DNA of 64,000 bases. Origin: a phage. This document shows positions 7,878-59,377 of this stretch, one piece after another; the first letter of the stretch is position 1; every line of letters begins with the position of its first letter. The notes beneath the pieces are model-generated. The model had not been told where the DNA came from. It did no database searches and was given only the letters and a program-made list of their open reading frames with translations. Made by a program: the position numbers and the translations under genes. The DNA lies in the sequence record OZ335962.1; one strand, given 5' to 3'.

Positions 7878-8435
7878 TTAAATGGAAAGATACCATCCAT
7901 TGTAGTTGCTTTTTCTTACAACCTTACGAAGGTCTTCTCTGTCACCGATGAACTTCGGAGTGTACTGGATGACACCTGGATGAATTTCTTTAGTGTTGAA
8001 TATAATTATACAGTCAGCGACCTGATGATTCAGAATGGGCCCTAGATTTATTCCAGAACCGTATGGATACTCTCCGCTGCATCCGGTTGTTACCGAAATC
8101 CAACGTGAGTCAGTTTGATGTGTTTTGACTTCTACACGAAGCCCGCAGTATCTTGGATGCGCCAATACATCCCATGCATATGTATACGGGTCATTAACAT
8201 CCTCTTGCCCTTTGTTAACATAGCCGCTTAGCCAATCTGCTACAAAAAATTCTGCGTACACCGCGATACGACATCTTTCAATAACTTCTGCTTTATCCTG
8301 GTTCGGGTTTTGTTTTAAAGAGTATCTTGCTGTATCAGCAATTTTGACCTTCATTTCACTAGTCAAGTCACTGTTCGATAGGGTAAATGTCGGAATCTGA
8401 AATAGTCTCTGTAAACCCGGATTCGTTTTCTGCAT
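7878..8435 (-). CDS. denB: Endonuclease IV DenB
   Basis: 185 aa; matches T4 endo IV in length and position next to rIIB; SD AAGGAAAG. Confidence 0.8.
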   Translation of the reverse strand: MQKTNPGLQRLFQIPTFTLSNSDLTSEMKVKIADTARYSLKQNPNQDKAEVIERCRIAVYAEFFVADWLSGYVNKGQEDVNDPYTYAWDVLAHPRYCGLRVEVKTHQTDSRWISVTTGCSGEYPYGSGINLGPILNHQVADCIIIFNTKEIHPGVIQYTPKFIGDREDLRKVVRKSNYNGWYLSI

Positions 8436-16358: not shown

Positions 16359-16402
16359 AGTTATCTCTCACTTGTTAAAAAGATTTTATACTCCACAGGA
16401 CC

Positions 16403-16433
16403 ATTATACTCTGGTCCCCAAGAGTTTGTAAAC
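16403..16433 (-). promoter_or_regulatory. T4-type early promoter (TATAAT -10)
   Basis: GTTTACAAACTCTTGGGGACCAGAGTATAAT on minus strand; spacer 18-19 nt. Confidence 0.45.
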
Positions 16434-16435
16434 TA

Positions 16436-16978
16436 TTAATTCAAAATAGCTACCACTGCACTACGAGGTACTACGCTAAAATCACCTGCATGAACAACGT
16501 TCAGAAGTTCAACACCATCTTCAATCCATTGGTCTGTTACCCAACCACAGACCGAAATAAATGGGGTCTTAATAGCTACTGCACGAGTCAAAAGGTCAGT
16601 AGGATCGCATTCTTGGAAGAGGATAAGCTCTGCTTCAAAGACTATAGTTTTAATTACTTCATCATTATCTAAGCGTTGTGCTCGAATCACGTAAGCTTTA
16701 TTCTTATCATGCCAATTACTTTTTGAAAAACTTTTAACAACAAACTCGCCTTCACCAAAAACACTAGTCAATGCTTTATAACCCAAACTTAGTTCAGTAG
16801 TTTTAATTTCAGTTTCAACCAGTTTGTAGGTTTTGCCAATTTCGATGGTCCGAGCAGTCATAAAGGTTTCCTTAATTTCTAATGGTTTAACAAGAGTGCC
16901 ATGCATGCTTGCTATATCTATATCAAATATTTTATCTATAGGATTTGGGGTGTATTCAGGATTATAATTAAATTTCAT
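16436..16978 (-). CDS. Hypothetical protein, 180 aa (paralogue B)
   Basis: ORF with ATG; C-terminal motif TDQWIEDGVELLNVVH. Confidence 0.55.
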   Translation of the reverse strand: MKFNYNPEYTPNPIDKIFDIDIASMHGTLVKPLEIKETFMTARTIEIGKTYKLVETEIKTTELSLGYKALTSVFGEGEFVVKSFSKSNWHDKNKAYVIRAQRLDNDEVIKTIVFEAELILFQECDPTDLLTRAVAIKTPFISVCGWVTDQWIEDGVELLNVVHAGDFSVVPRSAVVAILN

Positions 16979-16980
16979 AA

Positions 16981-17493
16981 TTATCTCATTTCAATAAAAT
17001 CTATAAGTTCAGCATGGGATTTACGGAACATTACTTGGTGTCCGCCAATGATAACTTCATCTTCAGGAACTTCATAAATCGCAATGTACATTCCACGATC
17101 TTTTAAGTCTTCACGCTCTTCTCGGGTGAACCATCTCATCATATCATATTCACTAGCGAAAGCAAAATGATATAATGAAATAAGCCACAATGGAATATAA
17201 TTTTCAAATTGCGAATAATCTTTATTCCATTTAGTTTTAATAGCATCATTAGCATTTTCAACTAATAACTTATCATCGTGCGGAATAGGAATACTTTCAT
17301 GGCTTTCATAATCATTGCTATGATGATGAAATGACGATGAATTAATACCGCAAAATTTTAGCCAAGTTCGAGTTTTCATAGAATCAAATCCACGATAAGG
17401 AGTTGATTGAACGCATAACTCTTGCCTAATTTTCACTATACCACTATCATCGTTTAATGCGCTAAACGATGATTCAACACGATAAATTTTCAT
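16981..17493 (-). CDS. Hypothetical protein, 170 aa
   Basis: Start at ATG 17493 with SD GAGGA; track ORF extended into promoter. Confidence 0.5.
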   Translation of the reverse strand: MKIYRVESSFSALNDDSGIVKIRQELCVQSTPYRGFDSMKTRTWLKFCGINSSSFHHHSNDYESHESIPIPHDDKLLVENANDAIKTKWNKDYSQFENYIPLWLISLYHFAFASEYDMMRWFTREEREDLKDRGMYIAIYEVPEDEVIIGGHQVMFRKSHAELIDFIEMR

Positions 17494-53870: not shown

Positions 53871-54113
53871 TTATTCCTTAATTCCTAGTACTTGTTTAAA
53901 AGTCTCGTCGTAATCAAGACTTTGGCCCGTTTGTTCTTTATGTTTGTATATAATATCACTTATTTCTGATAGCATATTTTTATATGAACGAGTTAAAGCA
54001 GATTTAAGCACGCTGTATCTATCAGGAAATTTACCGTGTTCATTATAATACGCTATTGCTAATTCACGGACTGCCTTTTCAGCAATCTCCATATATTCTT
54101 TACGCTTGGTCAT
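53871..54113 (-). CDS. Hypothetical protein, 80 aa
   Basis: ATG at 54113 (track start TTG). Confidence 0.45.
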
Positions 54114-54417
54114 TTTCTTCTCGGTCAAATCGGTGTTTGCAATGACGGCATTTATAACGAAGATTACTAGTCTGCCAATGAACTAATTGTACCTGTTCAG
54201 TACCGCATTCAGGACAATTAGGAACGTTTTTAGAAGCCCTTTCGCGACGTTCAACCATAGCCATAATGGCATCCCAAGCTGGAGGTTTAAAATCTAAATC
54301 GTCACAACCATGAATCTTTCCACGCATTTCCAGATCGTCTTCTTCACCAGCCATAATAATTTTAATTAGACTGGAATTACTTGAAGCTGCAATATCTTCT
54401 AATAGACGCTTTTTCAT
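54100..54417 (-). CDS. Zinc-ribbon protein, 105 aa
   Basis: CPECG...CRHCKH four-Cys motif. Confidence 0.5.
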
Positions 54418-55343
54418 TTCAGCACCTCAATAGCATTACGTAAACCATTTGCTTTTGCATTAAGAGCTTTTAACAATTTGGTGTGTTCGGCAATCTGGGC
54501 TTCAACTTCAATCAAACGAGCATTGAGATATTCACGTTCTTCGCTCAAGTTATCAATCTTTTCTACTTTAGGCTCTTTTACAACTGTCTTATATGTATTA
54601 GGGTTCTTCAGTTTAATTAGAATGCGTGAACTGTATAACATTGAACCATTATCTTCGGTTTCGTCATACATTTCTACTACGTCCATGATTTTTAACATCA
54701 TGCGAAGTTTATAAGACAACGAACGAATAGTTTTGTTGTGCTTATTAATTTCTTTAGAGTTCATGGTGCCGAGATTACGTGAGTAATAATAAGGAACCTG
54801 GATATTAATTAATACTGATGAACCACCTGGCTTGTGTGTTACTTCATCAGCAATAACCCAGTCCTTAACATGAACTGTATTTGTACGGTCATCACCCGCG
54901 GTAAACAGTTTGCGAGCATGCTTAAAAAGCATATTCACTTGGGTATTGAATTGACAAGCAAATTTATCAGCAAATTTAGTTTCAGGAATGGTAGATAGCC
55001 AATCAGCTAAATGGGTCTTTTTAACATCGTTAACAATAGTAAATTCAACCAAATCGGTTATAGATGTCGCAGATTTAATGAAGCTCGGCTTCATAAAGTT
55101 TTTAATGTTATCACGAGCTACAGTAGAAGATAACATACGAGAACGTTTAAACCATTCAAGCAAATTGCCTAATGAATGAGAATAGGCGTTCTGAGTATCT
55201 TTACAGATATGATTTTCCTGGCCAACATATTGAAGGAAATCACGAAGAATATTATTGATTACTGCTCTGTGTCCGATCTGATAATTACGATGTTTAGTAA
55301 TAAGACTGTCAAAATAATCAATATAATGTTTACGAGTTTTCAT
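54414..55343 (-). CDS. Coiled-coil protein P1, 309 aa (tandem family)
   Basis: ORF with ATG; C-terminal heptad-rich segment. Confidence 0.6.
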   Translation of the reverse strand: MKTRKHYIDYFDSLITKHRNYQIGHRAVINNILRDFLQYVGQENHICKDTQNAYSHSLGNLLEWFKRSRMLSSTVARDNIKNFMKPSFIKSATSITDLVEFTIVNDVKKTHLADWLSTIPETKFADKFACQFNTQVNMLFKHARKLFTAGDDRTNTVHVKDWVIADEVTHKPGGSSVLINIQVPYYYSRNLGTMNSKEINKHNKTIRSLSYKLRMMLKIMDVVEMYDETEDNGSMLYSSRILIKLKNPNTYKTVVKEPKVEKIDNLSEEREYLNARLIEVEAQIAEHTKLLKALNAKANGLRNAIEVLK

Positions 55344-55395
55344 GTTCTTCTCACTTGGTTAATGATTTATGCTCCGAGCCATCCTTGGCTTTAAA

Positions 55396-56397
55396 TTACT
55401 TAATTAATTGTAAAGCTTGTTCAAGACGATCTAGGCGATTAACAGATTCTTCCCAAATCCTTTTAGCCTGCTCATAATCTTTCTGCGCTTTATTAGAAAT
55501 TTCTAGAACTTCTTTATAAGCTTTTTCTAGTGCAATAACTTCTGGACGAATTTCTACCGGTTCAGGTGAATCGTCAAGACATTCCATTAGTTCCTCAAGG
55601 GTAGTTTCTTCTTTAGGAGTATTCACAATTTCATCACATTTTTGTTGGTAAATTTCTTTATCAGTCGGTGAGTACGCACACTTTACTTCACGGAGACTAA
55701 CTACAATTTTATATCCTTCCCAACCGCATATATTCTTAAAAGGATAAGTATGAATATTTTCTACTGTTTCCATACAAAGTAATGCGGTCTCTAACTGACG
55801 AGTTATATCGCTAGCAATTGAGAAAAATTTATTAATGTTCTTTTGATTAGCTTCTGGTGTAAAAAATTCATAATTCACAAAAATAGCTGCTTTATTTTTA
55901 TCAAGCTCATATTCTTTTATGATAATCATATCAGAAGCCCAAGGATGGATTTGACGATAATCACCATAGCATAATTTAGAAGCTGATTTTAGAAGTTGCT
56001 TCTTGAAAAGTCTGAAATTACTAATCCAACGACGAGTAAAAATATTCTCAGGGTCTTCTTTATTATTAAGATGATAAGAATTAACATCACCGAACCAATT
56101 ATATCCTACTACATCTTTAGTTCGTTTAATTTCTTTCCCAAATTTACTAAGAATATCTCTGTTGACTAAGTATGAAAGAAGACGAGAACCTTTAAAGGTT
56201 TCCTTAATATCATCTTTATATTCGCAACTAGAAATTTTATGAACTTCATGAATAAATTTGTCGGAAGAAACAATACTTGCATCAGTATTGTTGAGCCACT
56301 GATTGATAATAGAAAGAACACTATTCTGACTAGACATAGATTTAACTTTATCATCAATAACGCTATTGAATGATTTGATATATTCGTTACGAGTCAT
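55396..56397 (-). CDS. Coiled-coil protein P2, 333 aa (tandem family)
   Basis: Start at ATG 56397 with SD GAGGAG, downstream of promoter; C-terminal coiled coil. Confidence 0.6.
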   Translation of the reverse strand: MTRNEYIKSFNSVIDDKVKSMSSQNSVLSIINQWLNNTDASIVSSDKFIHEVHKISSCEYKDDIKETFKGSRLLSYLVNRDILSKFGKEIKRTKDVVGYNWFGDVNSYHLNNKEDPENIFTRRWISNFRLFKKQLLKSASKLCYGDYRQIHPWASDMIIIKEYELDKNKAAIFVNYEFFTPEANQKNINKFFSIASDITRQLETALLCMETVENIHTYPFKNICGWEGYKIVVSLREVKCAYSPTDKEIYQQKCDEIVNTPKEETTLEELMECLDDSPEPVEIRPEVIALEKAYKEVLEISNKAQKDYEQAKRIWEESVNRLDRLEQALQLIK

Positions 56398-56420
56398 ATT
56401 AATCTCCTCAGTAGAAAGTA

Positions 56421-56455
56421 AGAACATTATACCACATCCTTGTGGCGAAGTAAAC
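56421..56455 (-). promoter_or_regulatory. T4-type early promoter (GTTTAC / 18 / TATAAT)
   Basis: Minus read GTTTACTTCGCCACAAGGATGTGGTATAAT. Confidence 0.65.
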
Positions 56456-57480
56456 TAGTTTAGTGCATTTAGTGCATTGTTCAGTTTAGAACGTTGCTTC
56501 GTGAGATTTTTGACTTTTTCTTGAGCTTTTTCTAGTATCTTTTCAGCTTCTAACACTTCATTAGTTGCTTTAATGAGTTCATCATCTACTGCCTTGATAG
56601 ACTTCTCAATCGCATCTGCATGCCATTTTTCAACAGGTTTAAGACTCGGATTTTCAACAGGAAGAAAATTCGCTTTATTGAATTTCCATGCATCCTTATT
56701 ACCTGAACTATACATCCAAAATTTAGGATCGTTTGATGAGTAATTGGATAAATTTAAGTTATAGTTATCTTGTACTTCCTGCTTTTTCTCTTGCGGGATT
56801 TCGTCCTTTCTCAAAAAATCATATTTAAATGAAACGATCATATCAAGTTCATACGTTGTTGTATGTTCCCAATTTCGCTCAAAATGAGGTAAAATCTTAG
56901 ACTGAACCGCGGCAACTACATCCATATACTTAAATGCTTCTGTCAACTGTGATTTAAGGCATTCACAAATTGAAAGAGAATTTTTTGTATTAGGTTTAAA
57001 GCTAATTCGTGCAGTTCTGTTATTTTCTTTTAATGGTCTTACTTCCATCTGAAGAGTATAACCATCAAATTTCAGATTCTTTAAGTTAATATCAGAACCT
57101 TTTAATCGACTCGCAATTGATAAAATTTGTTTTAATTGTTTACGGAATAGAGCAATAAATCTCCATTCAATACGATAATGATTTGGATTGAAAAATCCAG
57201 ATGATAAATCGACCTTACTTTGACCAACGCCTTGAACAAATAGAGGATTTTTATAATCAATAGTTTTACAGAAATCGGTGAGCTGCTCACGAGCAGTCAT
57301 TTGTGTAATATACCCCGCTTTACTAAAATGACGTAACCATTCACTGCTATTCATATATTTAAAGTGAATATCACTATTAACTTTATCAGGGTCTAAATTA
57401 TTTTGACACAAAAATGTCATAACATCACGAGTATAGCTGGCATTACGAACCATATCTTCAATTTGAGAACGAGTTTTCAT
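56455..57480 (-). CDS. Coiled-coil protein P3, 341 aa (tandem family)
   Basis: ORF with ATG; C-terminal coiled coil. Confidence 0.6.
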   Translation of the reverse strand: MKTRSQIEDMVRNASYTRDVMTFLCQNNLDPDKVNSDIHFKYMNSSEWLRHFSKAGYITQMTAREQLTDFCKTIDYKNPLFVQGVGQSKVDLSSGFFNPNHYRIEWRFIALFRKQLKQILSIASRLKGSDINLKNLKFDGYTLQMEVRPLKENNRTARISFKPNTKNSLSICECLKSQLTEAFKYMDVVAAVQSKILPHFERNWEHTTTYELDMIVSFKYDFLRKDEIPQEKKQEVQDNYNLNLSNYSSNDPKFWMYSSGNKDAWKFNKANFLPVENPSLKPVEKWHADAIEKSIKAVDDELIKATNEVLEAEKILEKAQEKVKNLTKQRSKLNNALNALN

Positions 57481-57488
57481 GGTGTTCC

Positions 57489-58379
57489 TTAAGATTTAAG
57501 TAAATCAACAATTTTAATTAACTTTTCACGCTCAGATTTAGCTTTACTACTCAGTCCAGATAGTCTGAAAATTTCATCATCATATTGTTGAATGGAAATA
57601 TTCAGCTCTTCAATCTGTTTATTAAAATAATCAATTTGTTCAGAATGTTTTTCGTTACTACGAACTGGTACAGGTTTCGTAGGCAATGTAGTTGAACTGG
57701 ATTCATCCGGGCGATAAATTAAAATACAACTTGAACCAATAGGGCATTTTGCACCAGATGAATATTCTAATGTTCCAGCTTCTTTTAAAACTTCAAAAGC
57801 TAAACAGAGATGATGCCCCATATTAACATAATCTGTGGAGCGAGCTCTGATGTAATAATCATCGCCACGAATACTAAATTTAAAGCATTTAAGGTCTTCC
57901 GTATTATTGGTCTTAAAAATCATTTGTTTATCTAGACCTTTAGCTAATCGAGCGCCTAATGCTAATAATCGTCGTTGATTTTCCCACAAATCCACAATCA
58001 TTTGATCGAATGATAATTTCGGCATTAGTCGACCATAAAGGTCATATCCTTTATTATAATTACGAAGGATTTCACTCGCGTTAATACGAGACAATGCTCC
58101 AATTTTATTAAGAGCTTTCATAATGCGATTAGATAAACTCATTCCAGACCCATTTGTTCGCTGTAAATGTTTTTCTAATCCAAATCCAATATCAACTTTA
58201 AACTTATCTAAAATTTCTGCATGAACATCTCTGTCGATAACATTCAAATCCAAAGTTGGGTTAAATCTATGAAAAAATTTATCTGGCTCTGCACTGCGAA
58301 ATACAGTCCATTCATTCATCATTTTTTTATTAACTAAAGATTTAATTACTGCATTGACATTATTAATTACTACTGACAT
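57489..58379 (-). CDS. Coiled-coil protein P4, 296 aa (tandem family)
   Basis: Start at ATG 58379 with SD GAGGAAAAT (track start TTG). Confidence 0.6.
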   Translation of the reverse strand: MSVVINNVNAVIKSLVNKKMMNEWTVFRSAEPDKFFHRFNPTLDLNVIDRDVHAEILDKFKVDIGFGLEKHLQRTNGSGMSLSNRIMKALNKIGALSRINASEILRNYNKGYDLYGRLMPKLSFDQMIVDLWENQRRLLALGARLAKGLDKQMIFKTNNTEDLKCFKFSIRGDDYYIRARSTDYVNMGHHLCLAFEVLKEAGTLEYSSGAKCPIGSSCILIYRPDESSSTTLPTKPVPVRSNEKHSEQIDYFNKQIEELNISIQQYDDEIFRLSGLSSKAKSEREKLIKIVDLLKS

Positions 58380-58386
58380 ATTTTCC

Positions 58387-58794
58387 TCACTCAATTTCAA
58401 TTTTACTAAATATACAGAATAAGATGGAACAGACTATATAAGCACCACACACAGATTGAACTAATACCATTCCAAAGAACCAAACAATATTATCAAACAA
58501 TGTCTGTTTTACGTCGAAAGGACGTAAACTTACAGTAATATTATCACCTTTTTCTATTGAAGAATACATCTCTGGGGAAATATATTCACTAAATCTATAA
58601 CCGTCTTTGAGTTCATATACGGCAATAAACGATAAACTAGACCCTTTTCCTTGCGTTCCTGTAATGGTATTAACTACAGTAACATCATAATCTTTATAAT
58701 GCATATAATCATTAATTGCGTAATAACCATATGCAATTACTACACATAAACAACATATCAATAAATTCAATCTTTTAATTATCAACTGTTTCAT
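58387..58794 (-). CDS. Membrane protein, 135 aa (N- and C-terminal TM segments)
   Basis: ORF with ATG; hydrophobic termini. Confidence 0.55.
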   Translation of the reverse strand: MKQLIIKRLNLLICCLCVVIAYGYYAINDYMHYKDYDVTVVNTITGTQGKGSSLSFIAVYELKDGYRFSEYISPEMYSSIEKGDNITVSLRPFDVKQTLFDNIVWFFGMVLVQSVCGAYIVCSILFCIFSKIEIE

Positions 58795-58849: not shown

Positions 58850-59377
58850 TTATGCGAGTACCGTCTTTAACCGTTCTTCAAACTTCCGAAGAGTATTTTG
58901 GCGTTCAGCTCTTTGCTTTTTGTAAGTTTCAATACGCTCTGAAATGAGAGTGTATCGTTCATTTACTGATTCTTTCATAAAATCAGGAATTTCACGAGAA
59001 GCTTTAATCTCGTCAAATTTATCAATAACAGCTTGCTCTTCAGCAATTAAGTTATCATACATTAAAATATCTTTCTTGATGAACTCAATATCTTCTTGAG
59101 TTACACGAGATAATTTAGATGCTTTATCCTTTTTGTACTGTTCGTTAGTATCACGAGACCAGTGTAATGTACGATTTTTATTCGTATTTTTGTAAATTTC
59201 TACAATACCGATCTCATCAATAATAACGATCCAATTCCAACGGGATTTGTAAATTTGTCCTCCATCAACAGTGATTTCACCTCCGATTGAGATGTCATTA
59301 AAGAACTTGCTTTGTGCCTCAGATTTAAATTTACCATCGTTGTAATTTACCAAGTTGAAAATATCTTTAGCGTTCAT
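58850..59377 (-). CDS. Hypothetical protein, 175 aa
   Basis: ORF with ATG and SD GGAGGAACAG; downstream of early promoter. Confidence 0.55.
   Translation of the reverse strand: MNAKDIFNLVNYNDGKFKSEAQSKFFNDISIGGEITVDGGQIYKSRWNWIVIIDEIGIVEIYKNTNKNRTLHWSRDTNEQYKKDKASKLSRVTQEDIEFIKKDILMYDNLIAEEQAVIDKFDEIKASREIPDFMKESVNERYTLISERIETYKKQRAERQNTLRKFEERLKTVLA

Follow-up and report, generated by a model that had tools for sequence, protein, structure and literature searches.

Profile comparison places the consecutive nrdC.3 to nrdC.6 genes of a T4-like phage in one Straboviridae superfamily with coiled-coil tails and a candidate anti-defence role

Results

Gene content of the locus

We analyzed a 64,000-nucleotide stretch of phage DNA (sequence record OZ335962.1; the whole stretch is referred to as the window) and in it four consecutive minus-strand genes, here called A to D, at positions 54414-58379. 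The 4.8-kb region shares 96-97% identity with many Tequatrovirus genomes, e.g. Escherichia phage UGKSEcP2, and read against the T4 reference map its gene order is gp49, pin, ..., nrdC, nrdC.1, nrdC.2, A to D, nrdC.7 to nrdC.10, all on the minus strand. An earlier note on this DNA, made from the sequence alone, had described four consecutive same-strand genes encoding proteins of 296-341 residues, and its coordinates, strand and lengths proved exact; its comparison with the T4 genes nrdC.4 to nrdC.7 was off by one, as the T4 map gives nrdC.3 to nrdC.6. Based on the open reading frame list and the T4 map, the genes are:

54414-55343, minus strand: gene A, 309 residues, N-terminus MKTRK, orthologue of T4 nrdC.3
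55396-56397, minus strand: gene B, 333 residues, N-terminus MTRNE, orthologue of T4 nrdC.4
56455-57480, minus strand: gene C, 341 residues, N-terminus MKTRS, orthologue of T4 nrdC.5
57489-58379, minus strand: gene D, 296 residues, N-terminus MSVVI, orthologue of T4 nrdC.6

The stop-to-stop open reading frame of B extends to 56427, where an upstream ATG overlaps the -10 box of an early promoter described below, and a GAGGAG Shine-Dalgarno sequence precedes the ATG at 56397. The TTG-started open reading frame of D extends to 58400, and its 296 residues are counted from MSVV. The similar N-termini that had been noticed earlier are present in A, B and C but not in D.

Searches of the family libraries sorted the four proteins into three Pfam families, Y04OP (A and B), DUF7235 (C) and Y05B (D), and likewise into three PHROGs. 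Both A (E 1e-116) and B (E 3e-164) matched phrog_1435 end to end, and all B homologues carry PF26897 (Phage_T4_Y04OP) in precomputed annotation, a family whose name shows that nrdC.3 and nrdC.4 have already been merged. Protein C matched PF23882 (DUF7235) over residues 1-341 with 410 bits (E 9e-123; gathering cut-off 30 bits) as well as phrog_2351, and it is 91% identical to T4 nrdC.5 over 342 aligned columns, with the same position between nrdC.6 and nrdC.4. Protein D matched phrog_2257 over residues 1-296 (E 2e-151), and D homologues of 96-99% identity carry PF26899 (Phage_T4_Y05B). Further Pfam matches (PHL, DUF3905, Med29 and others) fell below their own cut-offs and were discarded, and no enzymatic Pfam domain was detected in A to D or in the bridging proteins introduced below. 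In many GenBank genomes every gene from nrdC.1 to nrdC.10 is annotated as 'thioredoxin'. Since A to D gave no thioredoxin or glutaredoxin Pfam match at E up to 1 and lack a CxxC motif, this label reflects propagation of a name from the neighboring nrdC, and the present analysis corrects a widespread misannotation of nrdC.3-nrdC.6-type genes.

Profile bridging of the four proteins

Pairwise alignment clearly joined A and B (BLASTP E 7e-9; hhalign 98.2%) and gave a suggestive link between A and C (hhalign 83%), with the combined AB profile reaching C at 85% (E about 6e-6). Direct hhalign of D against A, B or C was not significant (0.6-6%), the best value being that of ABC against D (18%, E 1e-3). 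As neither pairwise BLASTP nor direct hhalign between families could place D, it was placed only by way of an intermediate profile, S, which comprises eight single-copy proteins from other Straboviridae genera (homologues of 288-345 residues). The hhalign comparisons with S were as follows:

S against D: 98.7%, E 3e-16, 201 columns; with tails removed, 96.7%, E 4e-10
S against C: 98.5%, E 4e-15, 240 columns; with tails removed, 87%, E 4e-6
S against B: 92.6%, E 5e-7; with tails removed, 93%, E 3e-7

Controls for S, consisting of the reversed S profile and the unrelated nrdC.10, gave at most 1.3%. Single bridging proteins, taken with their tails removed, matched the core of D at about 1e-10 and the cores of B and C at 1e-5 to 1e-6, and unrelated open reading frames from the bridging loci scored at least 0.03 against the family cores. 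The curated PHROG models reproduced the bridging independently: Marfa_080 matched phrog_1435 (1e-10, full length) and phrog_2351 (2e-10), and the proteins P0234 and P0236 matched phrog_2257 (3e-15 and 4e-14, respectively) and phrog_2351. When the S model was run against the 64-kb window it returned exactly three matches, D, C and B (E 4e-13 to 7e-9), and no other open reading frame of the window matched it. A HMMER search with the D profile against 1.84 billion representatives retrieved 14 proteins, including the intermediates P0233, P0234 and P0236, and a related-locus search of viral contigs with C, P0234 and P0236 returned close relatives only or nothing. Taken together, the sequence comparisons indicate that A to D are homologous, with the link of A to the rest, which depends on A-B, as the weakest one. 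The paralogue family suggested in the earlier note is thus supported by the A-B alignments together with the bridging of C and D through S, and the links that persist when the tails are removed represent similarity beyond composition.

Conserved core and C-terminal tails

The alignments run through a helix with a recognizable end, (G/A/S)-(A/S/R)-(R/K)-L-x(2-4)-G at residues about 123-150, which was found in all families and in most members of S. The features of this signature are:

57936-58010, minus strand: signature helix of D, residues 124-148, ...NQRRLLALGARLAKG, aligned through by hhalign and containing invariant columns of the D family
Signature motif of A: FNTQVNMLFKHARKLFTAG
Signature motif of B: FRLFKKQLLKSASKLCYG
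Signature motif of C: FRKQLKQILSIASRLKG
Signature motif of D: WENQRRLLALGARLAKG

The equivalent helix ends are ARKLFTAG in A (143-150), ASKLCYG in B (139-145) and ASRLKG in C (123-128). AlphaFold2 yielded a usable model for D, with a predicted local distance difference test score (pLDDT) of 78, in which the signature helix leads into a beta-beta-alpha-beta-beta module (166-222) and then, through a disordered linker, into the tail. The model of C was poor (pLDDT 48), owing to a shallow alignment; its order of elements is similar to that of D, with only the first two strands resolved, and it was dropped as a query for fold searches. In C and D, conservation falls to some of its lowest values (17-22%) over the first 45-80 residues. 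A Foldseek search of viral predicted structures with the D model matched, beyond its own family, uncharacterised proteins of 304-335 residues from distant T4-like phages (IME523, PM2, Acj9, Acj61, fHyAci03, Mineola and Merlin; E 2e-7 to 5e-4) and a protein of fHe-Yen9-01 (E 1.7e-3); the proteins of IME523, PM2, Mineola and Merlin belong to the bridging set. Neither the C nor the D profile matched any PDB chain by sequence, and the globular part has a fold without a solved relative.

The heptad-rich C-terminal segment that had been reported for each protein was confirmed in all four. For this analysis, a family-averaged hydrophobicity periodicity with a permutation p value replaced a crude heptad score that was ambiguous for A and B. 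The tails are:

54417-54560, minus strand: tail of A, residues 262-309; period 3.45, permutation p 0.011
55399-55551, minus strand: tail of B, residues 283-333, ending VNRLDRLEQALQLIK; period 3.50, p <0.0005
56458-56628, minus strand: tail of C, residues 285-341, ending KQRSKLNNALNALN; period 3.50, p <0.0005
57492-57653, minus strand: tail of D, residues 243-296, ending SEREKLIKIVDLLKS; permutation p 0.015

In these tails of 48-57 residues the hydrophobicity period peaks at 3.45-3.50, and each holds one unbroken heptad register whose a/d positions are 80-94% hydrophobic, compared to 7-18% at the other positions. All four thus have unbroken 3.5-residue periodicity over at least four heptads, which in a predicted helix defines a coiled coil. 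In the AlphaFold2 model of D the tail forms two helices, 243-272 and 278-295 (pLDDT about 66-92), with a break at SGLSS, and in that of C a single helix, 282-340 (pLDDT 51-89). The extreme C-terminus carries the motif R-x-(K/R)-L-x2-A-h-x2-L-(K/R/N) in every family, and the tail is the best-conserved segment in 7 of 8 within-family comparisons (59-83% in those seven). The tails are thus alike in sequence and not in composition alone.

Upstream of the array lie nrdC.7 and nrdC.8:

58387-58794, minus strand: nrdC.7, gene for a 135-residue membrane protein

The nrdC.8 gene (58850-59377, 175 residues) also encodes a C-terminal heptad-like helix rich in Lys, Glu and Arg. It is 99-100% identical among the genomes compared, with a ratio of nonsynonymous to synonymous substitution rates (dN/dS) of at most 0.05; despite its heptad-like end it matched no family model, and it was rejected as a member.

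A conserved early promoter within the array

The early promoter that had been placed inside the array at 56421-56455 was found, by consensus scan and sequence, at the following position:

56426-56454, minus strand: T4-type early promoter, GTTTAC-N14-GTGGTATAAT, driving B, A and downstream genes

It lies immediately 3' of the stop codon of C and ~30 nucleotides ahead of the Shine-Dalgarno sequence and ATG of B. At this junction the element is conserved in Tequatrovirus, Mosigvirus and Dhakavirus/Gaprivervirus-type loci, and the GenBank record of ASO78A (MZ726795) independently annotates it as a T4 early promoter. The promoter spacer contains a small hairpin, N5-AGGA-N5', of which the AGGA loop is invariant and the arms co-vary between genera (CCACA/TGTGG, AACCA/TGGTT, CACCA/TGGTG and TCCA/TGGA). 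As this hairpin directly follows the nrdC.5 stop codon, it could also act on read-through RNA. Its positions in other loci are:

L011: ~5941
L007-L009: ~6945
L010: ~7955-7990

Copy number and natural variants

Using the widely conserved nrdC.10 as the synteny anchor, we found one copy each between nrdC.10 and nrdC in Kanagawavirus, Mosugukvirus, Marfavirus, Moonvirus and Lazarusvirus; in the first three of these the single copy lies directly upstream of the nrdC.2 homologue, i.e., in the slot of T4 nrdC.3. Three copies are present in Mosigvirus (D, C and A-type) and in Dhakavirus/Gaprivervirus-type loci (D, C and B-type), and four in Tequatrovirus. Tegunavirus, represented by Yersinia phage fHe-Yen9-01 (L013), has two dispersed copies and no tandem array. 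In that phage gp94 (9459-10337, 292 residues) matches the D, A and C profiles, and gp111 (16382-17323, 313 residues), which adjoins nrdC.10, matches the C profile by sequence and the D model by structure. The simplest reading of these copy numbers is tandem duplication of a gene originally beside nrdC.2. In the three-copy genera an open reading frame of ~70 residues lies between the nrdC.6 and nrdC.5 homologues; it has no family assignment and is absent from Tequatrovirus. Its positions are:

L007: 5838-6050
L008: 5826-6041
L009: 5855-6058
L010: 6777-6992

Purifying selection acts on each of the four genes in Tequatrovirus, and A, B and C evolve faster than gp49, nrdC.8 or nrdC.10. The dN/dS values of A, B and C are 0.13-0.34, save one near-identical A allele (0.08), and those of gp49, nrdC.8 and nrdC.10 are 0-0.08. 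Gene A falls into deep allele classes, the allele of the window sharing about 61% identity with those of T4, T2 and T6 and about 76% with that of Mosigvirus. Compared with the T4 allele it is a mosaic, with 88% identity in residues 1-60, 83% in the tail and about 50% in residues 61-267, so that the central segment of nrdC.3 alleles looks cassette-like. Deep allele classes of nrdC.3 (61% vs 98%) and of the adjacent nrdC.2 (54100-54417; 65% vs 88-89%) occur in Tequatrovirus genomes that are otherwise 95-99% identical.

Natural variants disrupt several of the genes. In P0056 (299 residues, on a 167,058-bp contig) nrdC.5 up to residue 273 is fused to nrdC.3 from about residue 129, with removal of nrdC.4. 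Unequal crossing-over between paralogues was considered for this fusion and rejected in favor of an ordinary deletion, because the joined positions (273 of C and about 129 of A) are not equivalent. In L005, nrdC.4 is frameshifted (L005:6901-8300), and in the nrdC.6 homologue of Shigella phage Sf25 (P0121, 378 residues) residues 177-259 are duplicated in tandem, spanning part of the beta-beta-alpha-beta-beta module and the linker. The reference T4 nrdC.6 (L001:12067-12894, 275 residues) follows D of the window up to residue ~259 and then departs from it in the way a frameshift would produce; it ends without the coiled-coil tail, which is kept in T6 and in all other loci examined. Deletion with fusion, duplication and frameshifts are the behavior of a dispensable accessory locus. 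Three database copies (P0054, P0067 and P0092) are assigned to Enterococcus faecalis or Bacillus cereus and most likely represent contamination of those assemblies by T4-like phage.

Discussion

The function of one member of this array has been addressed experimentally. A T4 clone with large deletions lost plating on ECOR17 (Srikant, Guegler and Laub, eLife 2022, PMC9391042), plasmid-expressed nrdC.5 restores plating of the T4 deletion mutant on cells carrying dsr1, and nrdC.5 of T4 is by itself enough to defeat the SIR2 NADase defence Dsr1 (PMC9391042). Our literature search found no functional paper on nrdC.3-nrdC.6 beyond this study, nor a mention of nrdC.5 paralogues. The suggestion in the earlier note of an anti-defence role thus holds for one member, T4 nrdC.5, the 91% identical counterpart of C, and for A, B and D it is a matter of inference. 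Since one paralogue disarms Dsr1, the other three are good anti-defence candidates.

On balance it seems somewhat probable that the four genes belong to an accessory anti-defence superfamily, expanded in tandem, in which a conserved coiled-coil tail is combined with a variable recognition domain. According to this model, A to D would be tandem paralogues of one ancestral early gene of Straboviridae, which is probably retained as a single copy just upstream of nrdC.2 in most T4-like genera and would have reached three copies in several and four in Tequatrovirus. Each protein is built of three successive parts: an N-terminal helical region with little conservation; a conserved core, in which the beta-beta-alpha-beta-beta module follows the signature helix; and a flexible linker with a coiled-coil tail of 48-57 residues ending R-x-(K/R)-L-x2-A-h-x2-L-K. 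The proteins would be non-essential, accessory and early-expressed, in part from the conserved promoter inside the array, and most likely would act stoichiometrically, as protein inhibitors of the anti-phage defences of the host. The variable globular part may bind the defence protein directly, the conserved tail may oligomerise the inhibitor or dock it to a common partner, and A, B and D might each neutralise a different defence. For nrdC.5, the analogy with DSAD1, which blocks DSR2, makes direct stoichiometric inhibition of Dsr1 through the variable globular part the most likely mechanism. A bolder version, which we hold only tentatively and consider rather doubtful, is that all Straboviridae carry this modular superfamily as a conserved coiled-coil handle, for oligomerisation or for docking to a common partner, attached to a fast-changing, recombination-shuffled recognition domain whose fold is absent from the PDB, with each Tequatrovirus paralogue directed at a different immune target. 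If so, Dsr1 would merely be the first target found, and the deep allele classes of nrdC.3 would represent switching between targets.

Several observations weigh against the anti-defence superfamily model. The direct link between S and A is weak (12%), A being tied in only through B, and the tail contributes part of the full-length score of S with C, which is 87% for the core. Only the D model is usable, the C model being poor, so that the fold common to the four proteins is putative. Functional evidence is confined to T4 nrdC.5. The gene-wide dN/dS is well below 1 for A to D, and with values of 0.05-0.15 D is as conserved as many of its housekeeping neighbors. Finally, nrdC.6 of laboratory T4 is frameshifted and tail-less, so that, on laboratory hosts at least, the phage can do without D.

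Among other explanations, we consider it improbable that the proteins have a phage-internal role, for example in scaffolding or regulating early nucleotide metabolism or replication, with an indirect effect of nrdC.5 on Dsr1. In favor of such a role, the array is found among nrdC, nrdD, nrdG, nrdH and further early genes of metabolism, even very distant genera of Straboviridae keep one copy, every member evolves under purifying selection and, as Dsr1 works by depletion of NAD+, a metabolic bypass is conceivable. However, the region was deleted at no cost on laboratory hosts, and nrdC.5 alone rescued plating specifically on Dsr1-carrying cells (PMC9391042); Pfam scans detected no enzymatic or nucleotide-binding domain, and the natural truncations, fusions and frameshifts, as well as a copy number that varies from one to four between genera, also speak against an internal role. 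Similarly unlikely is the assembly of the paralogues, via their tails, into one hetero-oligomeric complex acting on a single class of target such as Dsr1-like sirtuins. This would agree with the tail being the best-conserved part, with an end motif common to all families, and with the co-location and co-transcription of the genes, but a single copy suffices in most genera and members have been lost naturally (B is deleted in P0056 and frameshifted in L005, and D has lost its tail in T4). Rescue was moreover obtained with nrdC.5 alone, though the other paralogues may still have been present in that mutant. It is very unlikely that D is not homologous to A, B and C, the array then consisting of two or three unrelated families with convergent size, a convergent coiled-coil tail and a chance helix motif, as the weak direct hhalign values for D and its separation in Pfam and PHROGs might suggest, since S matches the core of D as well as those of B and C, P0234, P0236 and CIP9_194 each match the profile models of D, C and B at once, a protein of the Moonvirus Merlin is a structural match of the D model and its same-slot counterpart in phage Moon matches C by sequence, and the D and C models share a similar order of secondary structure.

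Our working model is the accessory anti-defence superfamily. Although no lytic phage has been studied better than T4, its nrdC.3, nrdC.4 and nrdC.6 still lack an assigned role; if the four genes and the single-copy genes of many other T4-like genera form one superfamily of common architecture, these three orphans become concrete anti-defence candidates, and structure prediction of the anti-Dsr1 factor can draw on a deeper alignment.

With respect to known systems, the genes are catalogued T4 open reading frames, one of them with a published anti-defence phenotype, and they do not constitute a new kind of system. Relative to T4 NrdC.5 (PMC9391042), C is the syntenic orthologue with the same DUF7235 and phrog_2351 assignments, and A, B and D are identified here as its paralogues, a relationship of nrdC.5 to nrdC.3, nrdC.4 and nrdC.6 that the published study does not mention; its activity was demonstrated for the T4 protein against the Dsr1 of ECOR17 only. 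A 2026 paper still regards DSR1 as poorly characterised (PMC13464706). Mechanistically, nrdC.5 is best compared with DSAD1 of phage SPbeta, which blocks the related sirtuin defence DSR2 by binding to it (PMC10981675, PMC11087589, PMC11263360) and is likewise a phage-encoded, non-enzymatic neutraliser of a defence-associated sirtuin; unlike nrdC.5, it comes from another phage lineage and has another target, and no DSAD1 chain was among the structural matches listed for the D model. NAD+ reconstitution by NARP1, NARP2 and NARP3 (10.1101/2024.02.11.579819; PMC13464706) is another means by which phages overcome NAD+ depletion of the DSR1 type, but these are enzyme pairs that resynthesise NAD+, whereas nrdC.3-nrdC.6 have no recognizable enzymatic domain. 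As far as the family libraries are concerned, A to D are ordinary members of entries in Pfam (PF26897, PF23882 and PF26899) and PHROGs (1435, 2351, 2257, 26858 and 12512) that are listed there as separate families of unknown function. What is new is that three of these database families and a fourth, single-copy family of the phrog_26858 type are linked here into one Straboviridae superfamily, and that its modular architecture is described.

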